From NCBI GenBank assembly GCA_050290185.1, contig JBNKHE010000001.1:740803-804802 (forward strand): DNA of 64,000 nucleotides, read 5' to 3'. Position 1 is the first letter of the stretch. Each line of letters opens with the position of its first letter. This document shows, piece after piece, positions 41,229-51,120 of the stretch. The notes beneath the pieces were generated by a model. The model was given only the letters and a program-made list of their open reading frames with translations, was not told where the DNA came from and made no database searches. The translations under genes were made by a program, and so were the position numbers. Source of the stretch: Pontiella sp. (GTDB taxonomy: Bacteria; Verrucomicrobiota; Kiritimatiellia; Kiritimatiellales; Pontiellaceae).

Positions 41229-43133
41229 TTGAAAAACAACGATACAGATTGGTCAGTCGAACAATCGGCTGAGTTATACGGCATCAATAACTGGGGGGCG
41301 GACTACTTCAGTGTGTCCCGCAAAGGCGAAGTCCTGGTACACCCGCACGGTAACGGCGTAGGGGTCAGCCTTCAGAAAATCATCGATGGTCTGGACGACC
41401 GCGGCCTCGACATGCCCGTACTGTTGCGTTTGAGCGACATCCTGGACTCCCGTATTCAGAAGCTCCACGAAAGCTTCGCCAAGGCGATTGCTGAATTCGA
41501 GTATGACGGCCGCTATCGCGGCGTCTATCCCATCAAGGTCAACCAGCAGCAGCAGGTTCTGGAGGAGATTACGCATTTCGGCGCGCGCTACCACCATGGC
41601 CTCGAAGCCGGCAGCAAACCGGAACTGATCGCCGCGCTGGCCTATATGCACGACACCGAAGCCTACCTGATCTGCAACGGCTACAAGGACGCCGAATTCG
41701 TCGATCTTGGACTCTATGCCTGCAAGATGGGCTTGCAGTGTGCGTTTGTGGTGGAAAACCCGTCTGAGCTGGCATTGATCATCGAGCGCTCCCGGGAACT
41801 CGATATCAAGCCGATCATCGGCGTGCGCCTCAAGCTTTCGACCCAGGCTTCCGGCCACTGGAACGAATCCGGCGGCGAACGCAGTGTTTTCGGCCTCAAC
41901 CCGTCCCAGGTGTGCGACCTCGTCGATATGCTTCGCGATGAAGACATGCTCGACTGCCTCAAGCTGCTCCACTACCACGTCGGATCGCAGATCCCGAACG
42001 TCCGCGACATTCGCGAAGCAGTGGTCGAGGCCTGCCGGGTCTACATAGGCCTGGTCAACGAAGGCGCCCCCATGGGGGTACTCGACCTCGGCGGCGGCCT
42101 GGCGGTCGATTATGATGGATCCCACTCGGATACCGCATCAAGCCGCAACTATGGTCTCGATGAATACTGTGCGGCCATTGTGGAAAACATCGTGAGCACC
42201 CTAGACGAGGTGGATATCCCGCACCCGGATATCGTCACCGAATCCGGCCGCGCCACGGTGGCCTACTACTCCGTACTGCTCTTCAATATTCTCGACGACA
42301 GCCGCTTCGAGATCGACGCACTCCCGAAGGAACTGGAGGACGACGCACACGAGCTGCTGCAGAACCTGATGACCGTGGTCAACGTGCTCGAAGCCAAAAA
42401 TGCGCAGGAGTGCTACCACGATGCCTTCTACTACCGTGACGAGATCCACCAGCGCTTCAAGCGCGGAACCATGTCGTTGCGCGAACGCGCGTTGGCCGGT
42501 GAAATCTTCTGGCACATCATCACGCGCATCGCGGCACTGACCAAGGAGATGGAGTTCGTGCCCGATGAGCTGCAGAAGCTCCACTCCGTTCTAGCCGACA
42601 TCTACTACGGCAACTTCAGCCTCTTCCAATCGCTCCCCGATGTCTGGGCCATCGACCAGCTATTCCCGATCATGCCGATCCACCGGCTCGACGAAAAGCC
42701 AACCCGCGAGGTCGTATTGGCCGACATTACCTGCGACTGCGACGGAAAGATTGATCATTTCGTTGGACAACACACAACACGCGATACCCTTCAGCTCCAT
42801 AATCTGACCAAGGACGAGTACTATCTCGGCGTCTTTCTGGTCGGCGCCTATCAGGAAACATTGGGCGACCTGCACAATCTGCTGGGCGATACCAATGTGG
42901 TTACCGTTCGCGTGGATTACGAAGGGCACCTTCAGTTCACGCGCGAGATCGAAGGCGACTCGGTGGCCGACGTGCTCAGCTATGTTGAATACGACCCGAA
43001 ACGCATGATCCGCCATATCCGCGAGCTGGCGGAAGAGGCCGTTCAGAACGGCCGCATCTCTCCCAAGGAACGCCGGCACATCATGGATGCCTACGAAGAC
43101 GGCATGCGCGGCTACACCTATTTCGAGCGCTAA
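41229..43133 (+). CDS. speA: Biosynthetic arginine decarboxylase
   Basis: YPIKVNQ, GLEAGSKPEL, CNGYKD, HYHVGSQI, DLGGGL.VDYDG, TESGRA, DITCDCDGKI, GAYQE.LG. Confidence 0.95.
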   Translation: MKNNDTDWSVEQSAELYGINNWGADYFSVSRKGEVLVHPHGNGVGVSLQKIIDGLDDRGLDMPVLLRLSDILDSRIQKLHESFAKAIAEFEYDGRYRGVYPIKVNQQQQVLEEITHFGARYHHGLEAGSKPELIAALAYMHDTEAYLICNGYKDAEFVDLGLYACKMGLQCAFVVENPSELALIIERSRELDIKPIIGVRLKLSTQASGHWNESGGERSVFGLNPSQVCDLVDMLRDEDMLDCLKLLHYHVGSQIPNVRDIREAVVEACRVYIGLVNEGAPMGVLDLGGGLAVDYDGSHSDTASSRNYGLDEYCAAIVENIVSTLDEVDIPHPDIVTESGRATVAYYSVLLFNILDDSRFEIDALPKELEDDAHELLQNLMTVVNVLEAKNAQECYHDAFYYRDEIHQRFKRGTMSLRERALAGEIFWHIITRIAALTKEMEFVPDELQKLHSVLADIYYGNFSLFQSLPDVWAIDQLFPIMPIHRLDEKPTREVVLADITCDCDGKIDHFVGQHTTRDTLQLHNLTKDEYYLGVFLVGAYQETLGDLHNLLGDTNVVTVRVDYEGHLQFTREIEGDSVADVLSYVEYDPKRMIRHIRELAEEAVQNGRISPKERRHIMDAYEDGMRGYTYFER

Positions 43134-43218
43134 GCCGGGTTTGACGAACCCGTCACAACCCGCTACCTTTTCTCGAAATTCCGGCAAAGATGATCGGTAA
43201 GGTCTCTTTACTAGGTAA

Positions 43219-43266
43219 GGACGATGTCCTCATCGTCCGGCGGACAGCGAGGACGCTATCCCTCCA
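43219..43266. repeat. REP-like double hairpin (GGAG family)
   Basis: GGACGATG-TCCT-CATCGTCC and GGACAGCG-AGGA-CGCTATCCCTCCA; related to 16657-16709. Confidence 0.65.
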
Positions 43267-43302
43267 GAAAGAAAACCGGGAAAAACCTAATACGGACCAA
43301 AC

Positions 43303-44445
43303 ATGAAATTTGATACAGCGGCTATTCACATCGGACAGGAACCGGACCGGGAAACCGGCGCGGTCATTCCACCGGTCTATCTGACCTCGACCTTTGCTCA
43401 ACTGGAACCCGGCCAAACCCACGGCTACGACTACACCCGTTCCGGCAATCCGGCTTTTGATCGGCTCGGCGCCACACTGGCGCATTTGGAGCAGGCCGAA
43501 TATGCCACGGTATTCGGTAGCGGAATGGCGGCTGTCACCGCCGTAATCTCCACCCTTTCGTCGGGCGACCATGTGGTGGCCGAGGAAAACATCTATGGTT
43601 GCACCTACCGCATCTACGACAAGGTCTTCAAGAAGTTCGGCGTGACCATCAGCTATATAGATCTCAGCGACCCAGCCAACTATGCCGAGATCGAAAAGCA
43701 GAAGCCGGCCCTGGTCTGGATCGAATCGCCCACCAACCCGTTGCTGAAAATCATCGACATCGCTGCCGTCGCCGATGCCTGCCACGCCGCCGGAACCGAA
43801 CTCCTGGTCGACAACACCTTCGCATCCCCCTGTTTCCAGAACCCGATTACACTCGGCGCCGACGTCAGCCTTTCGAGCACCACCAAATACATCAACGGGC
43901 ACTCGGACTGCCTCGGCGGCGTGGTTTGCACCAGCTCCAAGGATTGGAACGAAAAAATGGTTTTCGCCCAGAAGGCGATCGGCCTCAATCCCTCGCCGTT
44001 CGACTGCTGGCTTATCTCGCGCGGCCTCAAAACGCTGGGCGTGCGCATGAAAAAGCATGCCCAGAACGCGCTCAAGATGGCCGAATTCCTCGAAGGACTC
44101 GATTGCACAACCTCGGTTCGTTATCCGTTCCTTCCGTCACACCCGCAGCATGAGCTCGCGAAGCAGCAAATGCGCGGTGGTAGCGGCATGGTAACGGCTC
44201 TCTTCGACCTCTCGTTCGAGCAGGTCGTAAAACTGGTCTCGAACCTGAACCTGTTCTCGCTGGCCGAAAGCCTCGGCGGAATCGAGTCGCTCATCTGCCA
44301 TCCGGCGTCGATGACCCACGCCTCCATTCCGAAAGCCGAACGCGAAGCGGTCGGCATTACCGACGGACTTGTACGCTTTTCGGTAGGCATCGAGGATGCC
44401 GACGACCTGATCGCCGATATTCAAACCGCCCTGAACCAGCTTTAG
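43303..44445 (+). CDS. Cystathionine gamma-lyase/beta-lyase/gamma-synthase family PLP enzyme
   Basis: YTRSGNP, FGSGMAA, ESPTNP, VDNTF, STTKYINGHSD, LAESLGGIESL, RFSVGIE. Confidence 0.92.
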   Translation: MKFDTAAIHIGQEPDRETGAVIPPVYLTSTFAQLEPGQTHGYDYTRSGNPAFDRLGATLAHLEQAEYATVFGSGMAAVTAVISTLSSGDHVVAEENIYGCTYRIYDKVFKKFGVTISYIDLSDPANYAEIEKQKPALVWIESPTNPLLKIIDIAAVADACHAAGTELLVDNTFASPCFQNPITLGADVSLSSTTKYINGHSDCLGGVVCTSSKDWNEKMVFAQKAIGLNPSPFDCWLISRGLKTLGVRMKKHAQNALKMAEFLEGLDCTTSVRYPFLPSHPQHELAKQQMRGGSGMVTALFDLSFEQVVKLVSNLNLFSLAESLGGIESLICHPASMTHASIPKAEREAVGITDGLVRFSVGIEDADDLIADIQTALNQL

Positions 44446-44449
44446 TCCC

Positions 44450-45940
44450 ATGCCGCAGGAAAATCTACGCAACCATCCGCTCTGCCGCGCCGAAGATCTG
44501 GGTAAGCCGATCCCCAACACGAAGCACGCCATCTCGATGTGCCTGCCGCGCTGGCAGGATGTGGTCGGCTACGAGGAACGCGATCCGGCCACGATGAAAC
44601 GGTTGCAATTGGGTTATCCCCGTTTTTTCTACCACCCGCTGGTGGAGGCGGCGTTTGAAAAGTTTCGCCAGCCTTCGGATGATCAGATCCATCTATACAC
44701 GACCCGCGCCGCCGCCCAACGCTGCGCCGCCTACCTTTGGATCAAGGATCCCAAAGCCGAAGTGCATATTCGGGGACTTATCAATTCTCCGGTCACGCTC
44801 ATCAGTTTTCCGGAATCGCTGGCGGAGCATGCCAAGGCTTACTGGCAACATGCCGGCGAAGGCATTTCCTCGCGGTGCGCCGAAATGCTTCTAAACAACA
44901 CCACACTTCCCGATGCCTCGGAAGCGCAACGGAAGATCGTCGAACGCGTTGCAGATTTCACGGGGACCACCGCGGACAATGTCTACCTGTTTTGCTCTGG
45001 CATGGCGGCTATCAATGCGGCCTACATTGCATCGCGGAACCTGAATCCCGATGCCCCGACCGTTCAGTTTGCTTTCCCATACGGTGACACGTTGAAACTG
45101 CAGAACAAGTTTAACAAGTCGGGAGCATTGTTCTACTCCAACGGACATGAAGACGATTTGAAACAGCTGGAGTCGGATCTGGAAGACACAAAGGTCAGCG
45201 GTCTCTTTTGCGAGTTTCCGACCAACCCGTTGCTTACCAGCGTCGATCTTCAGCGGCTTCGCGAACTCGCGGACCAGTATAACTTCCCGATCATCATCGA
45301 TGAGACGCTCGGGGCATGCATCAATCAGAATACCCTACCCGCTTCCGACGTGTCGGCGATCAGCCTGACCAAGTTTTTCTCGGGCACCAGCGACGTCATG
45401 GGCGGCGCGTTGATCATTAACCCCGACGCACCCTTTGCGGCTCACTTCCGGAAACAGCTTGGCGAAATCCACGAACCGGAGGCTTTCCATCCGGCAGATA
45501 TCATCCAGCTGGAATCCGATTCGCGCAACTATCGTGAAAGGGTGGAACGGATCAACCGGACCGCGCTGGAAATATGCGAGCACCTTCACAAGCATCCGGC
45601 CGTGGAGTCGGTCTACTATCCCGCCGTTACCGACAAGGAAATGTACGATCGGTTCCGACGGCCCGAGGGCGGATACGGAGGACTGCTATCCTTTGTGCTC
45701 AAGGATGCGGCCAAGCATACCGAAGCCTTCTACGATGCGCTGGAAATCACCAAGGGCCCCAACCTCGGAACGAGTTTCAGCCTCTGTTGCCCTTTCGTAC
45801 TGATTGCCCACTACGATGAGCTGGAATGGGCCGAAAGAGCCGGCGCCTCGCGCTATCTTATTCGGATCTCGGTTGGTCTCGAACCGGCCAGCGAATTAAT
45901 CGAACGCATTGATCGCGCCCTCAATACCAAATTCGCGTAA
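44450..45940 (+). CDS. Long-form cystathionine gamma-synthase-like PLP enzyme (fungal Str2-like N-terminus)
   Basis: HAISMCLPRW..VVGYEE, GYPRF, WQHAGEGISSR, CEFPTNPLL, SLTKFFSG..DVMGG, KGPNLGT. Confidence 0.8.
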   Translation: MPQENLRNHPLCRAEDLGKPIPNTKHAISMCLPRWQDVVGYEERDPATMKRLQLGYPRFFYHPLVEAAFEKFRQPSDDQIHLYTTRAAAQRCAAYLWIKDPKAEVHIRGLINSPVTLISFPESLAEHAKAYWQHAGEGISSRCAEMLLNNTTLPDASEAQRKIVERVADFTGTTADNVYLFCSGMAAINAAYIASRNLNPDAPTVQFAFPYGDTLKLQNKFNKSGALFYSNGHEDDLKQLESDLEDTKVSGLFCEFPTNPLLTSVDLQRLRELADQYNFPIIIDETLGACINQNTLPASDVSAISLTKFFSGTSDVMGGALIINPDAPFAAHFRKQLGEIHEPEAFHPADIIQLESDSRNYRERVERINRTALEICEHLHKHPAVESVYYPAVTDKEMYDRFRRPEGGYGGLLSFVLKDAAKHTEAFYDALEITKGPNLGTSFSLCCPFVLIAHYDELEWAERAGASRYLIRISVGLEPASELIERIDRALNTKFA

Positions 45941-45957
45941 ACCGCCATATCCGCGTA

Positions 45958-45997
45958 GCACTATCATCCAGATCCACGGCCGTGAAGCTGGATGATA
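45958..45997. repeat. Self-palindromic about 40-bp repeat, left flank of the PaaX/Cas2-like gene
   Basis: GCACTATCATCCAGATCCACGGCCGTGAAGCTGGATGATA. Confidence 0.85.
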
Positions 45998-46001
45998 TGG
46001 C

Positions 46002-46811
46002 CTACAGGCGTTCATTGATCTTCGAAAACAATGTCCTGTGCAGTGAAAGCACTTCCATCCCACGATAGTTGGATGGACAGAGCGACATCGGAAGCAAAGG
46101 ATCTTCGACAAATACGCTATGATAGGCATCCAAGGCCAAGCGCATCAGCGGGCCCAATTCTTCAGCCTTGCAATTGCCTTGCTCCATCCTATCAATGTTT
46201 TCTTCCATAACTTCGCAATAGCGATCCTGTAGCAGGGAAAGTCTCCCAAAGTTCCACGCCTCCTCCACCACCCGGTTTCTTGGCAAACCCAACACGGTTT
46301 TCGCCTCGAATAGAAATGCAAACGCATCGATGCTGACCGCCTTTGAAAGGTCGTCAAAATCCGGACGAATATCCTGGGGCGTCACCCACACGCTTTGCTG
46401 CAGGCAACCCATTCGCATACGTTTCAAGAACTGCCGCAGGACATCCCTGTATTTTCGGTCTATTTCTGGTACATCGTACACAAGGAGATACCAAATACCG
46501 TTCCATTTCCTGTTCCACATTTTTTCGGGCGAGAAATACGGAGGCAGGCCGCTCTTCCCCGCTGCGGTAAGCGTCAGGTGCGGGGTTTGGCCACTCTCGG
46601 ATCGATTCACGACCAGACCGTTCTTGCGCAAGCGGCTTGTAGCATTGAGATAGGCCGCATGATTGGGATAGCAGGATTGGTTCAGCAGCCCCCAACCACC
46701 GCGCGTCAGAAAAACAGCCGACAGCTCCAGCATCTCCATAAGCTCAATGCCGACACGCCGTCGAACCACGGGCCAACTGATATCGGGATGGTGAAATTCG
46801 GTCCACTTCAT
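46002..46811 (-). CDS. PaaX-like protein (wHTH remnant + Cas2-like central domain + PaaX_C)
   Basis: SRLRKNGLV...LTAAGK; WNGIWYLLVYDVPE..RKYRDVLRQFLKRMRMGCLQQSVWVTP; AWNF..L...Y; DPLLP..L.P. Confidence 0.85.
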   Translation of the reverse strand: MKWTEFHHPDISWPVVRRRVGIELMEMLELSAVFLTRGGWGLLNQSCYPNHAAYLNATSRLRKNGLVVNRSESGQTPHLTLTAAGKSGLPPYFSPEKMWNRKWNGIWYLLVYDVPEIDRKYRDVLRQFLKRMRMGCLQQSVWVTPQDIRPDFDDLSKAVSIDAFAFLFEAKTVLGLPRNRVVEEAWNFGRLSLLQDRYCEVMEENIDRMEQGNCKAEELGPLMRLALDAYHSVFVEDPLLPMSLCPSNYRGMEVLSLHRTLFSKINERL

Positions 46812-46819
46812 TTCACCCT

Positions 46820-46861
46820 ACTATCATCTATCCTCACGGCCGTCGAGATGGATGATAGTGC
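46820..46861. repeat. Self-palindromic about 40-bp repeat, right flank of the PaaX/Cas2-like gene
   Basis: ACTATCATCTATCCTCACGGCCGTCGAGATGGATGATAGTGC; its reverse complement matches the left copy at 34/40 by manual count. Confidence 0.85.
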
Positions 46862-46942
46862 AATAATTCTCCTCGACTCCACGACTTGCAATAGCGTTGG
46901 CGATGGGATATCTGTTCGGCCTCATTTTTCAGGAGATTTTCT

Positions 46943-48139
46943 ATGTCGAAAGTTTTGATCATTGGAGCCGGTGGAGTCAGCGGCGTGGTTGTGCACAAGT
47001 GCGCGGCGTTGCCGGAAGTGTTTTCGGAAATCATGCTGGCCAGCCGCACGAAGTCGAAGTGCGATGCCATCGCCGCCCAGCTTTCCCGTCCGATCCAGAC
47101 GGCACAGGTCGATGCCGACAACGTGCCTGAGCTGGTTGCGCTGATTAAGTCGTTCGGGCCGGAGCTCGTGATCAATGTCGCCCTGCCCTACCAAGACCTG
47201 CATATCATGGATGCCTGCCTTGAAACCGGTGTGGCCTATCTCGACACCGCCAACTATGAGCCGGAAGATACCGCCAAGTTCGAGTACAAGTGGCAGTGGG
47301 CCTATCATGACCGCTTCAAGGAAGCCGGACTGATGGCGTTGCTCGGCAGCGGCTTCGATCCCGGCGTCACCTCCGTCTTCTGCACCTACATCCAGAAGCA
47401 CTATCTCGACGAAATCCATTATATCGATATCATCGACGTAAACGCCGGTGACCACGGCTATCCCTTTGCCACCAACTTCAACCCGGAGATCAACATCCGC
47501 GAAGTCACCGCCAAGGGGCGCTACTGGGAAAACGGCGAATGGATCGAAACCGCGCCGCTCTCCGTCAAGCACCGCTTCGAGGTGCCGGAAAACATCGCCA
47601 CGCCCAACATTTACCTGATGTACCACGAAGAACTCGAATCGCTCGCCACGCATATTCCGCACCTTAAGCGCGCGCGCTTCTGGATGAGCTTCGGCGACAG
47701 CTATCTCAAGCATCTCGAAGTGCTCGGCAACGTCGGCATGACCCGCATCGACGAAGTAGAGTTCAACGGCCAGAAGATCATTCCGCTGCAGTTCCTCAAG
47801 GCGCTGCTGCCCGACCCGGCCTCGCTAGGTCCGCGCACCAAGGGCAAGACGTGGATCGGCTGCCAGGTGACCGGCCTCAAGGACGGCAAGGAAAAGACCG
47901 TGGTCGTCTACAACACCTGCGATCATCAGGAGTGCTATGCCGAAGTGCAATCGCAGGCCATCTCATACACTACCGGCGTGCCGGCTTTCATCGGCGCCAA
48001 GATGCTCATCGAAAAGAAGTGGACCGGAAACGGCGTCTTCAACATGGAACAGATGGATCCCGACCCCTTCATGGAAGACCTCAACAAATACGGCCTCCCT
48101 TGGAAGGTTGTGGAAGGTCCGGTCATCGATCTCGACTGA
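46943..48139 (+). CDS. Carboxy(nor)spermidine dehydrogenase (saccharopine dehydrogenase family)
   Basis: IIGAGGV, NVALPYQDL, YLDTANYE, GFDPGVT, FATNFNPEINIRE, HEELESL, ISYTTGVP; context with speA and nspC. Confidence 0.92.
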   Translation: MSKVLIIGAGGVSGVVVHKCAALPEVFSEIMLASRTKSKCDAIAAQLSRPIQTAQVDADNVPELVALIKSFGPELVINVALPYQDLHIMDACLETGVAYLDTANYEPEDTAKFEYKWQWAYHDRFKEAGLMALLGSGFDPGVTSVFCTYIQKHYLDEIHYIDIIDVNAGDHGYPFATNFNPEINIREVTAKGRYWENGEWIETAPLSVKHRFEVPENIATPNIYLMYHEELESLATHIPHLKRARFWMSFGDSYLKHLEVLGNVGMTRIDEVEFNGQKIIPLQFLKALLPDPASLGPRTKGKTWIGCQVTGLKDGKEKTVVVYNTCDHQECYAEVQSQAISYTTGVPAFIGAKMLIEKKWTGNGVFNMEQMDPDPFMEDLNKYGLPWKVVEGPVIDLD

Positions 48140-48160
48140 TCCACCGGCGTACGAGCGCAC

Positions 48161-48802
48161 TTAATCCGTACCGTACTCGGGACGGTACGGGCCATAAAGC
48201 AATCCCTTGTTGCGCGTCGTAAAGAGTTTCGCACTGGCCGTAACGGCCACATTGTGCGCCTCATCCACACTGTGGGATACGACCTGACTGACCGCGGCGG
48301 AGACCAGCATGCCGACCAGATCGCTTGATCCACTGGAGGAACTCTGGTGCACGTCCACCACCCCGCTCCAGAGCAACGTTCCGGTTTTTACATCCACCAG
48401 CCGTGCATGCATACGCACAATCGTGGAACTGTCTAAAACGGCATACTTCGTTCCATACTGGTTCACCGTGAGATAGAGGACGGCATCCGCCCCAATGATT
48501 TCGTCTACCTTGCGTAGTGGAATCTGGTTCATTTCTCCGGCGGTGGGCATTCCATTTTCCTTGAGAAACTGGTCGATGACCGCCACGGGAAATACATAAT
48601 AGCCCATTTCCGCCAGCGGTCGGGTCACCGTCGAAAGCACCCCGTAAGTCGCCTTCAGGTCCGTACTGTCATTCAATGGCGGAATCACCAGCACCGATCG
48701 AGGGCGATATGCACGGAAGGCCGTGTAATCCGGTGGCGTGGCACAACCAGATAGAAACCCGATTGCCAAAACCGCGAAAAAGAATCCGGTCAACCTACGC
48801 AT
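48161..48802 (-). CDS. DUF799 (GNA1162-like) lipoprotein
   Basis: LSGC lipobox, PRSVLVIPPLN, PLAEMGYYVFPV, GADAVLY, LLYGPY. Confidence 0.85.
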   Translation of the reverse strand: MRRLTGFFFAVLAIGFLSGCATPPDYTAFRAYRPRSVLVIPPLNDSTDLKATYGVLSTVTRPLAEMGYYVFPVAVIDQFLKENGMPTAGEMNQIPLRKVDEIIGADAVLYLTVNQYGTKYAVLDSSTIVRMHARLVDVKTGTLLWSGVVDVHQSSSSGSSDLVGMLVSAAVSQVVSHSVDEAHNVAVTASAKLFTTRNKGLLYGPYRPEYGTD

Positions 48803-49151
48803 GGCCGCCCCCCAGTTTCTTGATAAACCGATCCATCAGCACGGAAGATTCAGGGAAAGCCGCCTTTTCGGCTTCGAAGGATTGCTTCGCCAGATCGAAC
48901 TTGCCGAGCTGGAAATAGAGAAAGCCGAGATGCGCCTCGAACCCGGGCGGAAGTGGCTTGTCTTTGGAACGAGCCCGCTCGATATCAGCCTCCATCAGCT
49001 CAACCTGACGTTCCGGCGGCATTTCACCGGGCTCGTTATACATTTTATAGATCTGGTTTTCATAACTCCCCCAGTAATACAGGCTGGGCGAAGCGCAACC
49101 GGAGAGCAGAAGAATTCCAGCGAGTCCAACAACGGCGGCAATAGGCTTCAT
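48795..49151 (-). CDS. DUF4810 lipoprotein
   Basis: LSGC, LYYWGSYE..IY, PPG..AHLG.LY, F..EK..FPES. Confidence 0.85.
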   Translation of the reverse strand: MKPIAAVVGLAGILLLSGCASPSLYYWGSYENQIYKMYNEPGEMPPERQVELMEADIERARSKDKPLPPGFEAHLGFLYFQLGKFDLAKQSFEAEKAAFPESSVLMDRFIKKLGGGHA

Positions 49152-49152
49152 G

Positions 49153-49836
49153 CTAGTCCTTCGTCGGGGTCCATGCCCCGGACTCGATGCCTTCAACCAA
49201 GTGGTTCACTGCCTCGCGGATGGCCAGATCAAGCACCTTGCCATTGAGCGTGGAATCATAGCCGGCGGTACCGCCCGTTCCGACAATCTCACGATTGCTC
49301 AACACATATTCGCCGGCACCCTGAACCGAAAAGACCACGGATGAGCTTTTGACATCGACGATATTCAGCGTGACCTTGGCGTAGGCCACCTGCTTCTTGC
49401 CGGAACCGAGGATGCCGAAGAGCTGGACATCGCCGGTTTCCTTGCGACCGAACTCGGAGACCTGACCGGTAACAACATAGTCGGCCCCTTGAAGCTTTTG
49501 TTCCACGCCCTGCAGTTGCGCTTCCTTGGCGATCTCCTCCATGTTACCGCGATCCAGCACATTGAAACGGCCGGTCTGTTGCAGGTGGGAAATCAGAATA
49601 GTCTTGGACTGGCTTCCCAGCCGATCAACGCCATCCGAAAAAAGTCCGCGCATGTAGCCGGTCCGGTTTTCAAACTTGCCGACGGCCAGCTTGTTTTTGG
49701 GTCCGCTATAATACGTGTTGGCCGAAGCTACCTGCGTCGGCTGTATCGTCTTGTGCGATTCCGAGGCACAACCGGCCAGTACGACCGCCATGGCCGAACA
49801 AGCGATCCATTTCCATCCGCAAATCATCCTATTCAT
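49153..49836 (-). CDS. CsgG/HfaB family lipoprotein
   Basis: LAGC, AVGKFENR, LQQTGRFNVLDR, GADYVVTG.VSEFG, LDLAIREAV. Confidence 0.85.
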   Translation of the reverse strand: MNRMICGWKWIACSAMAVVLAGCASESHKTIQPTQVASANTYYSGPKNKLAVGKFENRTGYMRGLFSDGVDRLGSQSKTILISHLQQTGRFNVLDRGNMEEIAKEAQLQGVEQKLQGADYVVTGQVSEFGRKETGDVQLFGILGSGKKQVAYAKVTLNIVDVKSSSVVFSVQGAGEYVLSNREIVGTGGTAGYDSTLNGKVLDLAIREAVNHLVEGIESGAWTPTKD

Positions 49837-49962
49837 GAAGCGACTCCTTCTGTTTGACTCGCGCCAAATACTACCACGAAGCCTTGCAACCACAAGTCCA
49901 GACACCGTTCAGTTCGCATTCCACCTTCCCTTTTTCCATCATCCCGTGTATTGCGTATCGGC

Positions 49963-51120
49963 ATGAAAACCCCGGTATTTATTGTCGACGAAGAACGCAT
50001 CCGCAAAAACTGCCAGACCCTCGCCTCCGTGAAGGAACGCACGGGCTGCACAGTATTGCTCGCCCTCAAGGGTTTTGCCATGTGGCCGCTGTTTCCACTG
50101 ATTCGCGAATACCTCGACGGCACCTGCGCCAGCTCACCATGGGAAGCGCGCCTTGGCCGGGAAGAATTCAACGGCGAAGTGCATGCCTTTGCCGCCGCTT
50201 ATTCCGAAGCGGACTTTGCCGAGTTGCTGACACTATGCGACGAGATCGATTTTAATTCGTTTACGCAATGGGAACAATTCAAGCCGCTCGCCGAATCGGG
50301 GACCCAGCCGACAAAGTTTGGCTTGCGCATCAACCCGGAATGCTCGACGCAACCGGCCGACCACGCCATCTATGATCCGTGCGCGCCGAAGTCGCGCCTC
50401 GGCATCCGGCGACGAGACTTTGAAGGACAATCCCTTGACGGCATATCCGGCCTGCACTTCCACACGCTCTGCGAGCAGAATTCGGATGACTTGCAAACGA
50501 CGCTGAAAGCGGTCGAGGAAAGGTTTGGAGAATTCCTGCCACAGATGGAATGGGTCAACTTTGGCGGCGGGCACCACGTTACGCGCAACGACTACAACAT
50601 CGACCTGCTCTGCACGCTGATTAACGACTTCAAGGCGAAGTACGGCGTTCAGGTCATTCTCGAACCCGGCGAAGCCGTCGCACTTAATGCCGGCGTACTG
50701 GTTTCAACGGTGATGGACGTGATCGACAATGATGGCGCAATCGCAATTCTCGATGCGTCCTGCACCTGCCACATGCCCGACGTTCTGGAAATGCCCTACC
50801 GTCCCCTCATCGGAATTTTGAAGGGCGACAATCTGTTTTCCCCCTTGAACGATCCTGCAGGCGAAGCCGGAGAAAAAGCGTACACCTACAAACTGGCCGG
50901 GCTAAGCTGTCTGGCGGGCGACGTCATCGGCGACTATTCCTTCGATGAACCCCTCCAGACCGGCGACCGGCTGGTTTTCGGCGACATGGCGCACTACTCG
51001 ATGGTAAAAACCTCCTTCTTCAACGGCATCCAGCATCCCGACATCGCCATCCTGCGCGATGGAGAAATACATCTTGTTCGCCGCTTCGGCTACGACGACT
51101 ATAAAAACCGGCTGTCCTAA
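49963..51120 (+). CDS. nspC: Carboxynorspermidine decarboxylase
   Basis: LLALKGF, LRINP, YDPC...SRLG, GLHFHTLCEQ, NFGGGHH, EPGEA, HMPDVLEMPY, CLAGDVIG, DYKNRLS. Confidence 0.95.
   Translation: MKTPVFIVDEERIRKNCQTLASVKERTGCTVLLALKGFAMWPLFPLIREYLDGTCASSPWEARLGREEFNGEVHAFAAAYSEADFAELLTLCDEIDFNSFTQWEQFKPLAESGTQPTKFGLRINPECSTQPADHAIYDPCAPKSRLGIRRRDFEGQSLDGISGLHFHTLCEQNSDDLQTTLKAVEERFGEFLPQMEWVNFGGGHHVTRNDYNIDLLCTLINDFKAKYGVQVILEPGEAVALNAGVLVSTVMDVIDNDGAIAILDASCTCHMPDVLEMPYRPLIGILKGDNLFSPLNDPAGEAGEKAYTYKLAGLSCLAGDVIGDYSFDEPLQTGDRLVFGDMAHYSMVKTSFFNGIQHPDIAILRDGEIHLVRRFGYDDYKNRLS

Follow-up and report, generated by a model that had tools for sequence, protein, structure and literature searches.

The window, meaning the whole 64,000-nucleotide stretch of Pontiella sp. 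DNA analysed here, carries a compact cassette in which a gene for a PaaX-fold protein is bracketed by two copies of a 40-bp palindrome, and comparison with its relatives indicates that this palindrome-gene-palindrome unit is likely a selfish DNA element. We give somewhat better than an even chance to the explanation that a dimer of the encoded protein binds the palindrome and, at the centre of this site, probably cuts DNA or exchanges it; new solo palindromes (copies standing apart from the gene) would be seeded in this way, existing ones overwritten and, occasionally, the cassette itself moved. The earlier note had proposed a mobile or self-maintaining module, a reading that is supported by cognate palindromes co-varying with their protein, by the occupation of many sites, by empty alleles, and by solos that are linked to the gene. 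A literature search (subscription papers were largely out of reach and supplements excluded) returned no description of such a system, the combination of PaaX with Cas2 giving none, and the element is likely of a kind that the literature searched does not describe. The locus comprises the following features:

46002..46811, minus strand: PaaX-fold gene (winged helix-turn-helix, Cas2-like and helical C-terminal domains), identified from the ORF, Pfam, an AlphaFold model and a fold match.
46820..46861, no strand: upstream palindrome (arm 46822-46861), core ACGGCCGT at 46836-46843, centre 28 nt 5' of the ATG.
45958..45997, no strand: downstream palindrome, core ACGGCCGT at 45976-45983.
46623..46664, minus strand: predicted winged-helix recognition helix (residues 50-63); palindrome positions 16-17, counted from the centre, co-vary with its Asn56.
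46287..46511, minus strand: Cas2-like central domain (residues 101-175), matching PF20803 with E 3.8e-23, with Cas2 and VapD among the fold matches.
46473..46475, minus strand: Asp113 codon; the residue stands where Cas2 nucleases have their catalytic Asp, is present in 87/87 homologues and is absent from E. coli PaaX.
46395..46397, minus strand: Gln139 codon; residue 139 predicts the palindrome's central base pair, here Gln with a GC centre.
44450..45940, plus strand: host flank outside the element, a Cys/Met-metabolism PLP enzyme.
46943..48139, plus strand: host flank outside the element, carboxynorspermidine synthase/dehydrogenase-like, below the curated cut-off.

The open reading frame (269 aa) proved genuine when checked in the window, and the gene is single-copy in the window's genome (G000). 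As the earlier note had read from the letters, the two arms (45958-45997 and 46822-46861) match as inverted repeats at 34 of 40 positions (85% complementary), each arm is self-palindromic and fits the proposed consensus, the palindromes bracket the ORF closely, ending 4 nt from the stop codon and about 10 nt from the ATG, and the gene lies antisense, on the minus strand between two plus-strand neighbours. The palindrome centres are 860 bp apart, and as DNA hairpins the two copies have z values of -2.1 and -2.6. Of the GTAG...CTAC frame described around the left copy, the letters themselves are present (GTAG at 45955-45958, CTAC at 46002-46005) but the tag is not conserved, and since outer-end GTAG or GTGG occurs in just 8 of 146 homologous palindromes, it is an incidental detail. 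A scan of the 3.58-Mb genome for the palindrome, allowing up to 10 mismatches in 40, found the window's two sites and one solo (C5:58485-58528), which differs from the downstream palindrome at 5 of 40 positions; the next-best match had 14 mismatches. This solo is near-perfect, of the cassette's own type and the second most symmetric palindrome in the genome scan, and it is flanked by genes that we take to be purC and tkt. The surroundings of the cassette form a polyamine gene cluster (window 41229-51120), interrupted by two PLP enzymes, the cassette and a three-gene lipoprotein operon (CsgG, DUF4810 and GNA1162-like); beside the carboxynorspermidine synthase-like gene, its members presumably include arginine decarboxylase-like and carboxynorspermidine decarboxylase-like genes.

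Pontiella and further members of the Kiritimatiellia supply the closest named homologues, more distant ones occurring in Lentisphaeria and elsewhere in Verrucomicrobiota, and homologues were found in 23 of 61 related genomes, the copy number ranging from 0 to 9 per genome. Among 89 full-length homologues (49 loci from relatives plus 44 new ones, minus 4 that were short or broken), 73 are bracketed by their own cognate pair of palindromes, 14 have a palindrome on one side (5 of these being cut by a contig end), and 2 have none by our filter, of which one (L160) carries 18/18 palindromes built on another core. Flanking palindromes, some of them decayed, are likewise present at five more remote loci (L385-L387, L389 and L390). 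Centre-to-centre distances across homologues are mostly 855-863 or 880-888 bp; in the homologue alignment the C-terminus of the protein often extends into the downstream palindrome, so that the repeat encodes the last residues, and palindromes are still found at broken or truncated gene copies (L033 in G007, L049 in G022, L296-L297 in G076, L023 and L423 in G060). In 43 complete cassettes the palindrome falls into zones: positions 2-4 are a nearly fixed core, positions 7-10 a loose spacer (0.57-0.75), and positions 13-19, which are 0.85-0.98 identical within a palindrome and 0.84-0.95 identical between the two palindromes of one locus, are 0.28-0.43 identical across loci. The operator of E. 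coli PaaX, given as TGATTC-N27-GAATCA in PMC9493321, has its half-sites at the same distance from the dyad as positions 13-19 of the cassette palindrome.

The palindromes co-vary with their protein, above all at residue 139 and the central base pair. Lys or Arg at this residue accompanies an AT centre in 62 loci (one further Lys locus being mixed), Gln or Gly a GC centre in 23 of 23, and Asp an asymmetric centre in one locus; on the protein tree the residue-139 class undergoes 8 Fitch changes, the centre 8, and the two jointly 8, and thus all of them coincide. Residue 139 and the central pair also give the highest mutual information (z 9.5, a score without kinship correction), and further pairs, likewise without such correction, link residue 123 to position 5 (Asp123 with G in 41 of 50, Asn123 with C in 24 of 28), residue 120 to position 6, and residue 56 to positions 16-17. 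An exception to the Lys/Arg rule is the distant homologue L387, with Asn139 and an AT centre. Unusual cores were observed in L141, L160 and L390, namely asymmetric centres with Asp139 or Gly139 and, in L160, a different perfect core. We strongly infer from the sequences that the protein binds its palindrome specifically, with two winged helices reading positions 13-19 and a Cas2-like dimer reading the centre (the central pair through residue 139 and position 5 through residue 123), and that it represses its own gene through the upstream copy. The upstream palindrome is the predicted operator and likely overlaps the promoter, an overlap read by eye from the homologues; a sigma-70 scan found no promoter in the window and none at this palindrome. 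By eye, the upstream palindromes of L014, L024, L029, L033 and L048 contain a TAnnnT hexamer 6-8 nt before the ATG, with no obvious RBS, which suggests that transcripts at these loci may be leaderless and start in or just after the palindrome.

In Pfam, the protein matches PaaX_M (PF20803), PaaX_C and, weakly, Cas2, and the best fold match of an AlphaFold model built from 142 sequences (pLDDT 87) is E. coli PaaX 8a39 (Z 18.6, rmsd 4.9, 255 residues). The description of its central domain as Cas2-like is borne out by the PF20803 match together with the VapD and Cas2 RNase structures among the fold matches; Cas2 chains match this domain at Z about 7, a level reachable by chance, and the Cas2 family match is at domain level, under the family cut-offs. 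Six residues (Asp113, Arg122, Gln138, Ser140, Asp147 and Arg149) never vary among the 87 homologues compared, and E. coli PaaX has neither an equivalent of Asp113 nor the QxSVW motif. With PaaX of E. coli W (PDB 8a39; TIGR02277; PF20803 and PF08223) the cassette protein shares the three-domain fold, a palindromic site some 39 bp long whose specificity lies 13-19 bp off the dyad and, likely, autorepression, but it scores 50.8 bits against the PaaX equivalog cut-off of 264.55, keeps Asp113 and QxSVW, and comes with a central core that is read, with another palindrome at its stop codon, with as many as 9 copies in one genome and with scattered solos. The absence of a phenylacetate cluster, remarked on earlier, was upheld, as paaA was not found in the genome (95.5% complete; the control search gave matches in 4 of 14 genomes) and the neighbours of the cassette are unrelated. 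A role as paa regulator was rejected on the score, the missing paaA and these neighbours. In complete genomes, paaX architectures are rarely found outside a catabolic context, according to PMC13186573.

With PaaX and Cas2 as models, the cassette protein is inferred to act as a dimer whose Cas2-like domains sit on the dyad, so that Asp113 would come to lie close to the palindrome's centre. In type I-C Cas2, paired Asp8 residues are needed for dsDNA cleavage, according to PMC5438308, and in the light of that source the cassette domain resembles Cas2/VapD proteins and the Cas2 of Cas1-Cas2 in its ferredoxin-like form and the position of the paired Asp, with Cas2 chains among its fold matches. It differs from these in being fused to a winged helix and a helical domain and in falling below the Cas2 cut-offs; moreover, no Cas1 was found in G000, and the Cas2-like domain appears to read specific bases. 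A CRISPR or Cas1-dependent system was rejected, as Cas1 was found in neither G000 nor G010 and the neighbours in the window are metabolic genes; weak Cas2 models were the sole matches in PADLOC. The VapD and Cas2 RNase structures among the fold matches, the invariant Asp and the presence of palindromes at both transcript ends would also fit an RNase toxin of VapD/Cas2 type that is held inactive on DNA sites, the palindromes serving as antitoxin sinks or RNA hairpin substrates. We hold this to be very improbable, given that cassettes are often lost (empty and occupied alleles being intermingled on the host tree), that the base-specific code suits a double-stranded two-fold site, and that PADLOC offers nothing beyond those weak models.

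The gene is not stably syntenic: the cassette is patchy, multi-copy and found at many sites. When cassettes sharing either neighbour are counted as one site, the 73 complete cassettes fall into up to 34 neighbourhood groups (a number that singletons from distant taxa may inflate), the two largest holding 15 and 8 cassettes, and for 32 of the 73 the nearest homologue sits in another group. Several of the sites are old, and no very recent jump was caught, because the closest cross-site pair is just 76% identical in protein. Between the PLP-enzyme and dehydrogenase genes, where the window's cassette lies, 9 genomes are occupied, with arms that differ among them, and 5 genomes have empty alleles without any palindrome; an inversion was sought at this site, and all 9 copies have the same orientation. 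Since the tree of the neighbouring gene mixes occupied with empty alleles, and host identity is only weakly correlated with cassette identity (rho 0.37 over 36 non-independent pairs), the window's cassette is, as read from these alleles, an old resident that was often lost or replaced and no fresh insertion. Intergenic empty sites are too diverged for the mapping of a target-site duplication or exact junctions, and four contig-only runs of one study, three of them possibly the source of the window's DNA, contained no joint across the cassette, excised or inverted, a result without evidential weight as contigs cannot show circles. A third palindrome was observed 190-240 bp beyond the cassette at L004:2300-2620 (G002) and L007:2300-2560 (G032), preceded by 25-40 nt that resemble the 3' end of the gene, and G002 also has a duplication of the PLP-enzyme gene's 3' end. 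Phages and plasmids were rejected as vehicles, with no homologue in IMG/VR or GenBank phages and just 13 distant plasmid matches at 24-30% identity.

The palindrome is tied to the gene family and is not a free genome-wide REP. One site pattern gave 138 matches in 17 of the 23 gene-positive genomes (cassette flanks included) and 6 matches in 5 of the 38 gene-negative ones, a reversed control pattern giving 0 or 1 match per genome; the 6 gene-positive genomes without a match carry arm types that the pattern misses. Solos also follow the resident type. The 66 collected (one is probably a terminator, and many come from genomes picked because they have cassettes) score 9.32 in matching the cassettes of their own genome, against 6.96 +/- 0.34 when permuted (p=1e-4, 15 genomes, without kinship correction), and the own cassette ranks in the top 3 of 33 in 12 of 15 genomes; solos without a matching cassette occur in G068, G003, G017 and at some sites in G007. 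Inspection of 40 loci placed most intergenic solos behind stop codons or between convergent genes. The symmetry of many solos extends past the arms, to 24-27 bp. An origin of solos as gene-end fragments was rejected, as solos mostly cease to resemble cassette flanks 20-28 bp away from the centre, and gene 3'-end sequence (25-40 nt) was found, among the palindromes compared, in two tandem extras. A second solo in G000 (C2:198875-198915), of another clade's type and located between convergent genes, is probably the fossil of a lost cassette, because the site used by that clade (C8, about 106200) is empty in G000. Among single observations, one solo in G007 (L184) is a hybrid with two arms of different types, as core exchange would yield, and another (L434:3148-5900, G001) precedes the gene for a type I restriction R subunit by about 190 nt.

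Solos recur in frame, and in different types, at the same spot of three conserved genes (a radical-SAM gene, uxaC and an SRAP gene). For the radical-SAM gene 24 of 28 alleles were readable, of which 15 are empty, with a native 75-nt loop, and 9 are filled with palindromes of several types (84-108 nt, all in frame), all 9 in cassette-bearing genomes; 4 more filled alleles were found in metagenomes, among 74 readable of 80. Two of the alleles, L208 and L309, are 94% identical over 360 flanking nt, and their inserts are wholly different in arm type and length. The metagenome scan gave no near-identical filled/empty pair, the nearest empty allele being at most 84% identical. In uxaC (20 readable of 30 fetched), 7 intact and 3 decayed palindromes occupy one position without a change in length, and filled alleles of the SRAP gene measure 138-168 nt versus 108-114 nt in most native ones (several rows being shortened by the anchor). 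The in-gene palindromes add 3-19 residues of varying sequence, and their types usually follow the resident cassette; native DNA is replaced in these coding-region alleles, and no duplication was seen. Bearing on a possible pseudo-site, native uxaC alleles, which may include decayed inserts, reach the 98th percentile of site score at the palindrome register, and the best local percentiles are only 0.78 for uxaC, 0.69 for radical SAM and 0.33 for SRAP. Point mutation followed by selection is an unlikely origin of the block replacements, and copying or strand exchange between palindromes would be the simpler reading.

Palindromes in frame within protein-coding genes are also seen in the Rickettsia palindromic elements, for which the accessible parts of PMC1458961 and PMC3733652 name no partner protein; the cassette palindromes are about 40-50 bp long, replace native sequence instead of merely being added to it, and turn over with the resident gene. 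RAYTs, in the account of PMC3733652, belong to the HUH tyrosine transposases and cleave REP DNA in its single-stranded form at a GTAG tag. The REP/RAYT systems (REPtrons) and TIRtrons of that text resemble the cassettes in having a gene flanked by cognate palindromes, several types per genome, and solos that lie mostly behind genes and sometimes in frame inside them. They differ in that the cassette protein has the PaaX fold and no Y1_Tnp match in Pfam, that the tag is mostly absent from cassette palindromes (8 in 146, counted for GTAG and GTGG), and that the cassette site, by the evidence, is double-stranded, two-fold and read at the centre; identity with REP/RAYT therefore fails on fold and tag.

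One homologue clade heads chains of palindrome-bounded units enriched in defence-like genes; the window's own cassette has no cargo. The arrays of this clade are composed as follows:

G076, first array: the gene, an AEP-TOTE primase-helicase, and a basic ORF with a 415-aa ORF.
G002: as the first array of G076, without the primase-helicase and with a TPR protein.
G022: the gene, the primase-helicase, remnants and an SNF2 helicase.
G076, second array: SNF2, DUF6429 and a 155-aa ORF.
G007: just the 155-aa ORF between two palindromes, at a host site shared with G002 and G022.

Primase-helicase homologues, 68-73% identical, occur without palindromes in G066, G015 and G013, which suggests that this gene was captured into the arrays; it is present in 8 of 53 genus genomes and not in G000. 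In G015 (L446:3-3897) an AbiEi/AbiEii pair precedes the AEP-TOTE primase-helicase, and a similar upstream gene was seen by eye in G066 and G013. Three cargo proteins could be assigned to no family (L414:6698-8301, L417:3443-5109, L415:1893-2360): the basic ORF (about 95-115 aa), the 415-433-aa protein, for which the Atlas gave no usable match, and the 155-aa protein, a coiled coil with a weak RecE-like PHROG match. No reordering of units was seen in the four multi-unit arrays read, and because all arrays fit one master order, they may have come from stepwise deletion of one composite element. Integrons pair IntI with arrays of attC cassettes. This clade is like them in that short, palindrome-bounded cargo units, enriched in defence-like genes, either occupy a given host site as a block or are missing from it, but its sites are two-fold operators and not attC, and no recombinase family, tyrosine recombinase included, was found among the array proteins scanned.

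The cargo starts from about 28-29 nt (primase-helicase) to about 60 nt after the palindrome centre, resembling the cassette gene, and this spacing, together with the recurrence of sites at the same three host genes in many genomes and the type I restriction subunit behind one solo, would suit a host transcription factor whose solos are a selected regulon, for instance of defence genes driven from operator-promoters. That the family works in this way we consider improbable, as the sites inside coding sequence add residues of varying number and sequence, most intergenic solos lie behind stops or between convergent genes, whole arms are replaced between 94%-identical alleles, and the gene itself is patchy, at 0-9 copies per genome.

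In the explanation that we prefer, the predicted protein dimer would bind the palindrome, and the paired Asp113 residues on the dyad might nick or cleave its centre. Repair or strand exchange with another palindrome might then rewrite the arms and keep both flanks of the cassette matched, loss of the gene might leave a solo palindrome, and DNA between two palindromes might be added or dropped by exchange. What counts against this explanation is that a centre-cut site is kept intact on both sides of the gene, which is unlike classical homing and needs tight control; moreover, we know of no Cas2 fold that acts as a recombinase. The copying of palindromes could be done by a host HUH (Y1) transposase, genes for which are present in 5 of 5 genomes tested, the PF01797 matches in G000 lying away from the cassette. 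The cassette protein would then be a pure DNA-binding autorepressor that protects or pairs palindromes, and the copying would fall to a host HUH transposase, RecA-type recombination or template switching during replication, an alternative that seems to us unlikely, if still deserving serious thought. The PaaX fold and operator geometry agree with it, as do the Y1/HUH genes and the many solos symmetric to 24-27 bp, which template switching would give; yet it does not explain why Asp113, Arg122, Gln138 and Ser140 are invariant when the repressor PaaX is without the Asp and QxSVW, and candidate helpers are wanting, in that no shared gene adjoins the cassettes, Cas1 was not found in the two genomes searched, and the primase-helicase is limited to a minority of genus genomes.

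A bolder form of the preferred explanation, possible in our view but doubtful, is that of a new class of mobile element, in which a wHTH/Cas2-fold dimer would be a sequence-programmable nuclease-recombinase with a residue-to-base code that acts at the centre of a 40-bp palindrome, writes palindromes into other DNA, including coding DNA, and captures or drops defence genes through integron-like joints; PaaX would descend from it as a domesticated form without catalytic activity, and the family would be a living model for the origin of Cas2.

The cassettes offer a candidate partner protein for gene-invading palindromic repeats, of a fold unrelated to known transposases, and a recognition code, linking residue 139 to the central pair and residue 123 to position 5, that can be tested directly. 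Nature supplies dozens of matched proteins and sites, which could be useful as orthogonal repressors or, if catalytic, as site-specific DNA tools, with prospective use in lineages that are uncultured or barely so. In Verrucomicrobiota, many proteins now labelled PaaX or Cas2 are likely misannotated. The arrays suggest how integron-like series of genes might arise without the integrase of an integron, and the family would link PaaX, Cas2 and mobile DNA.
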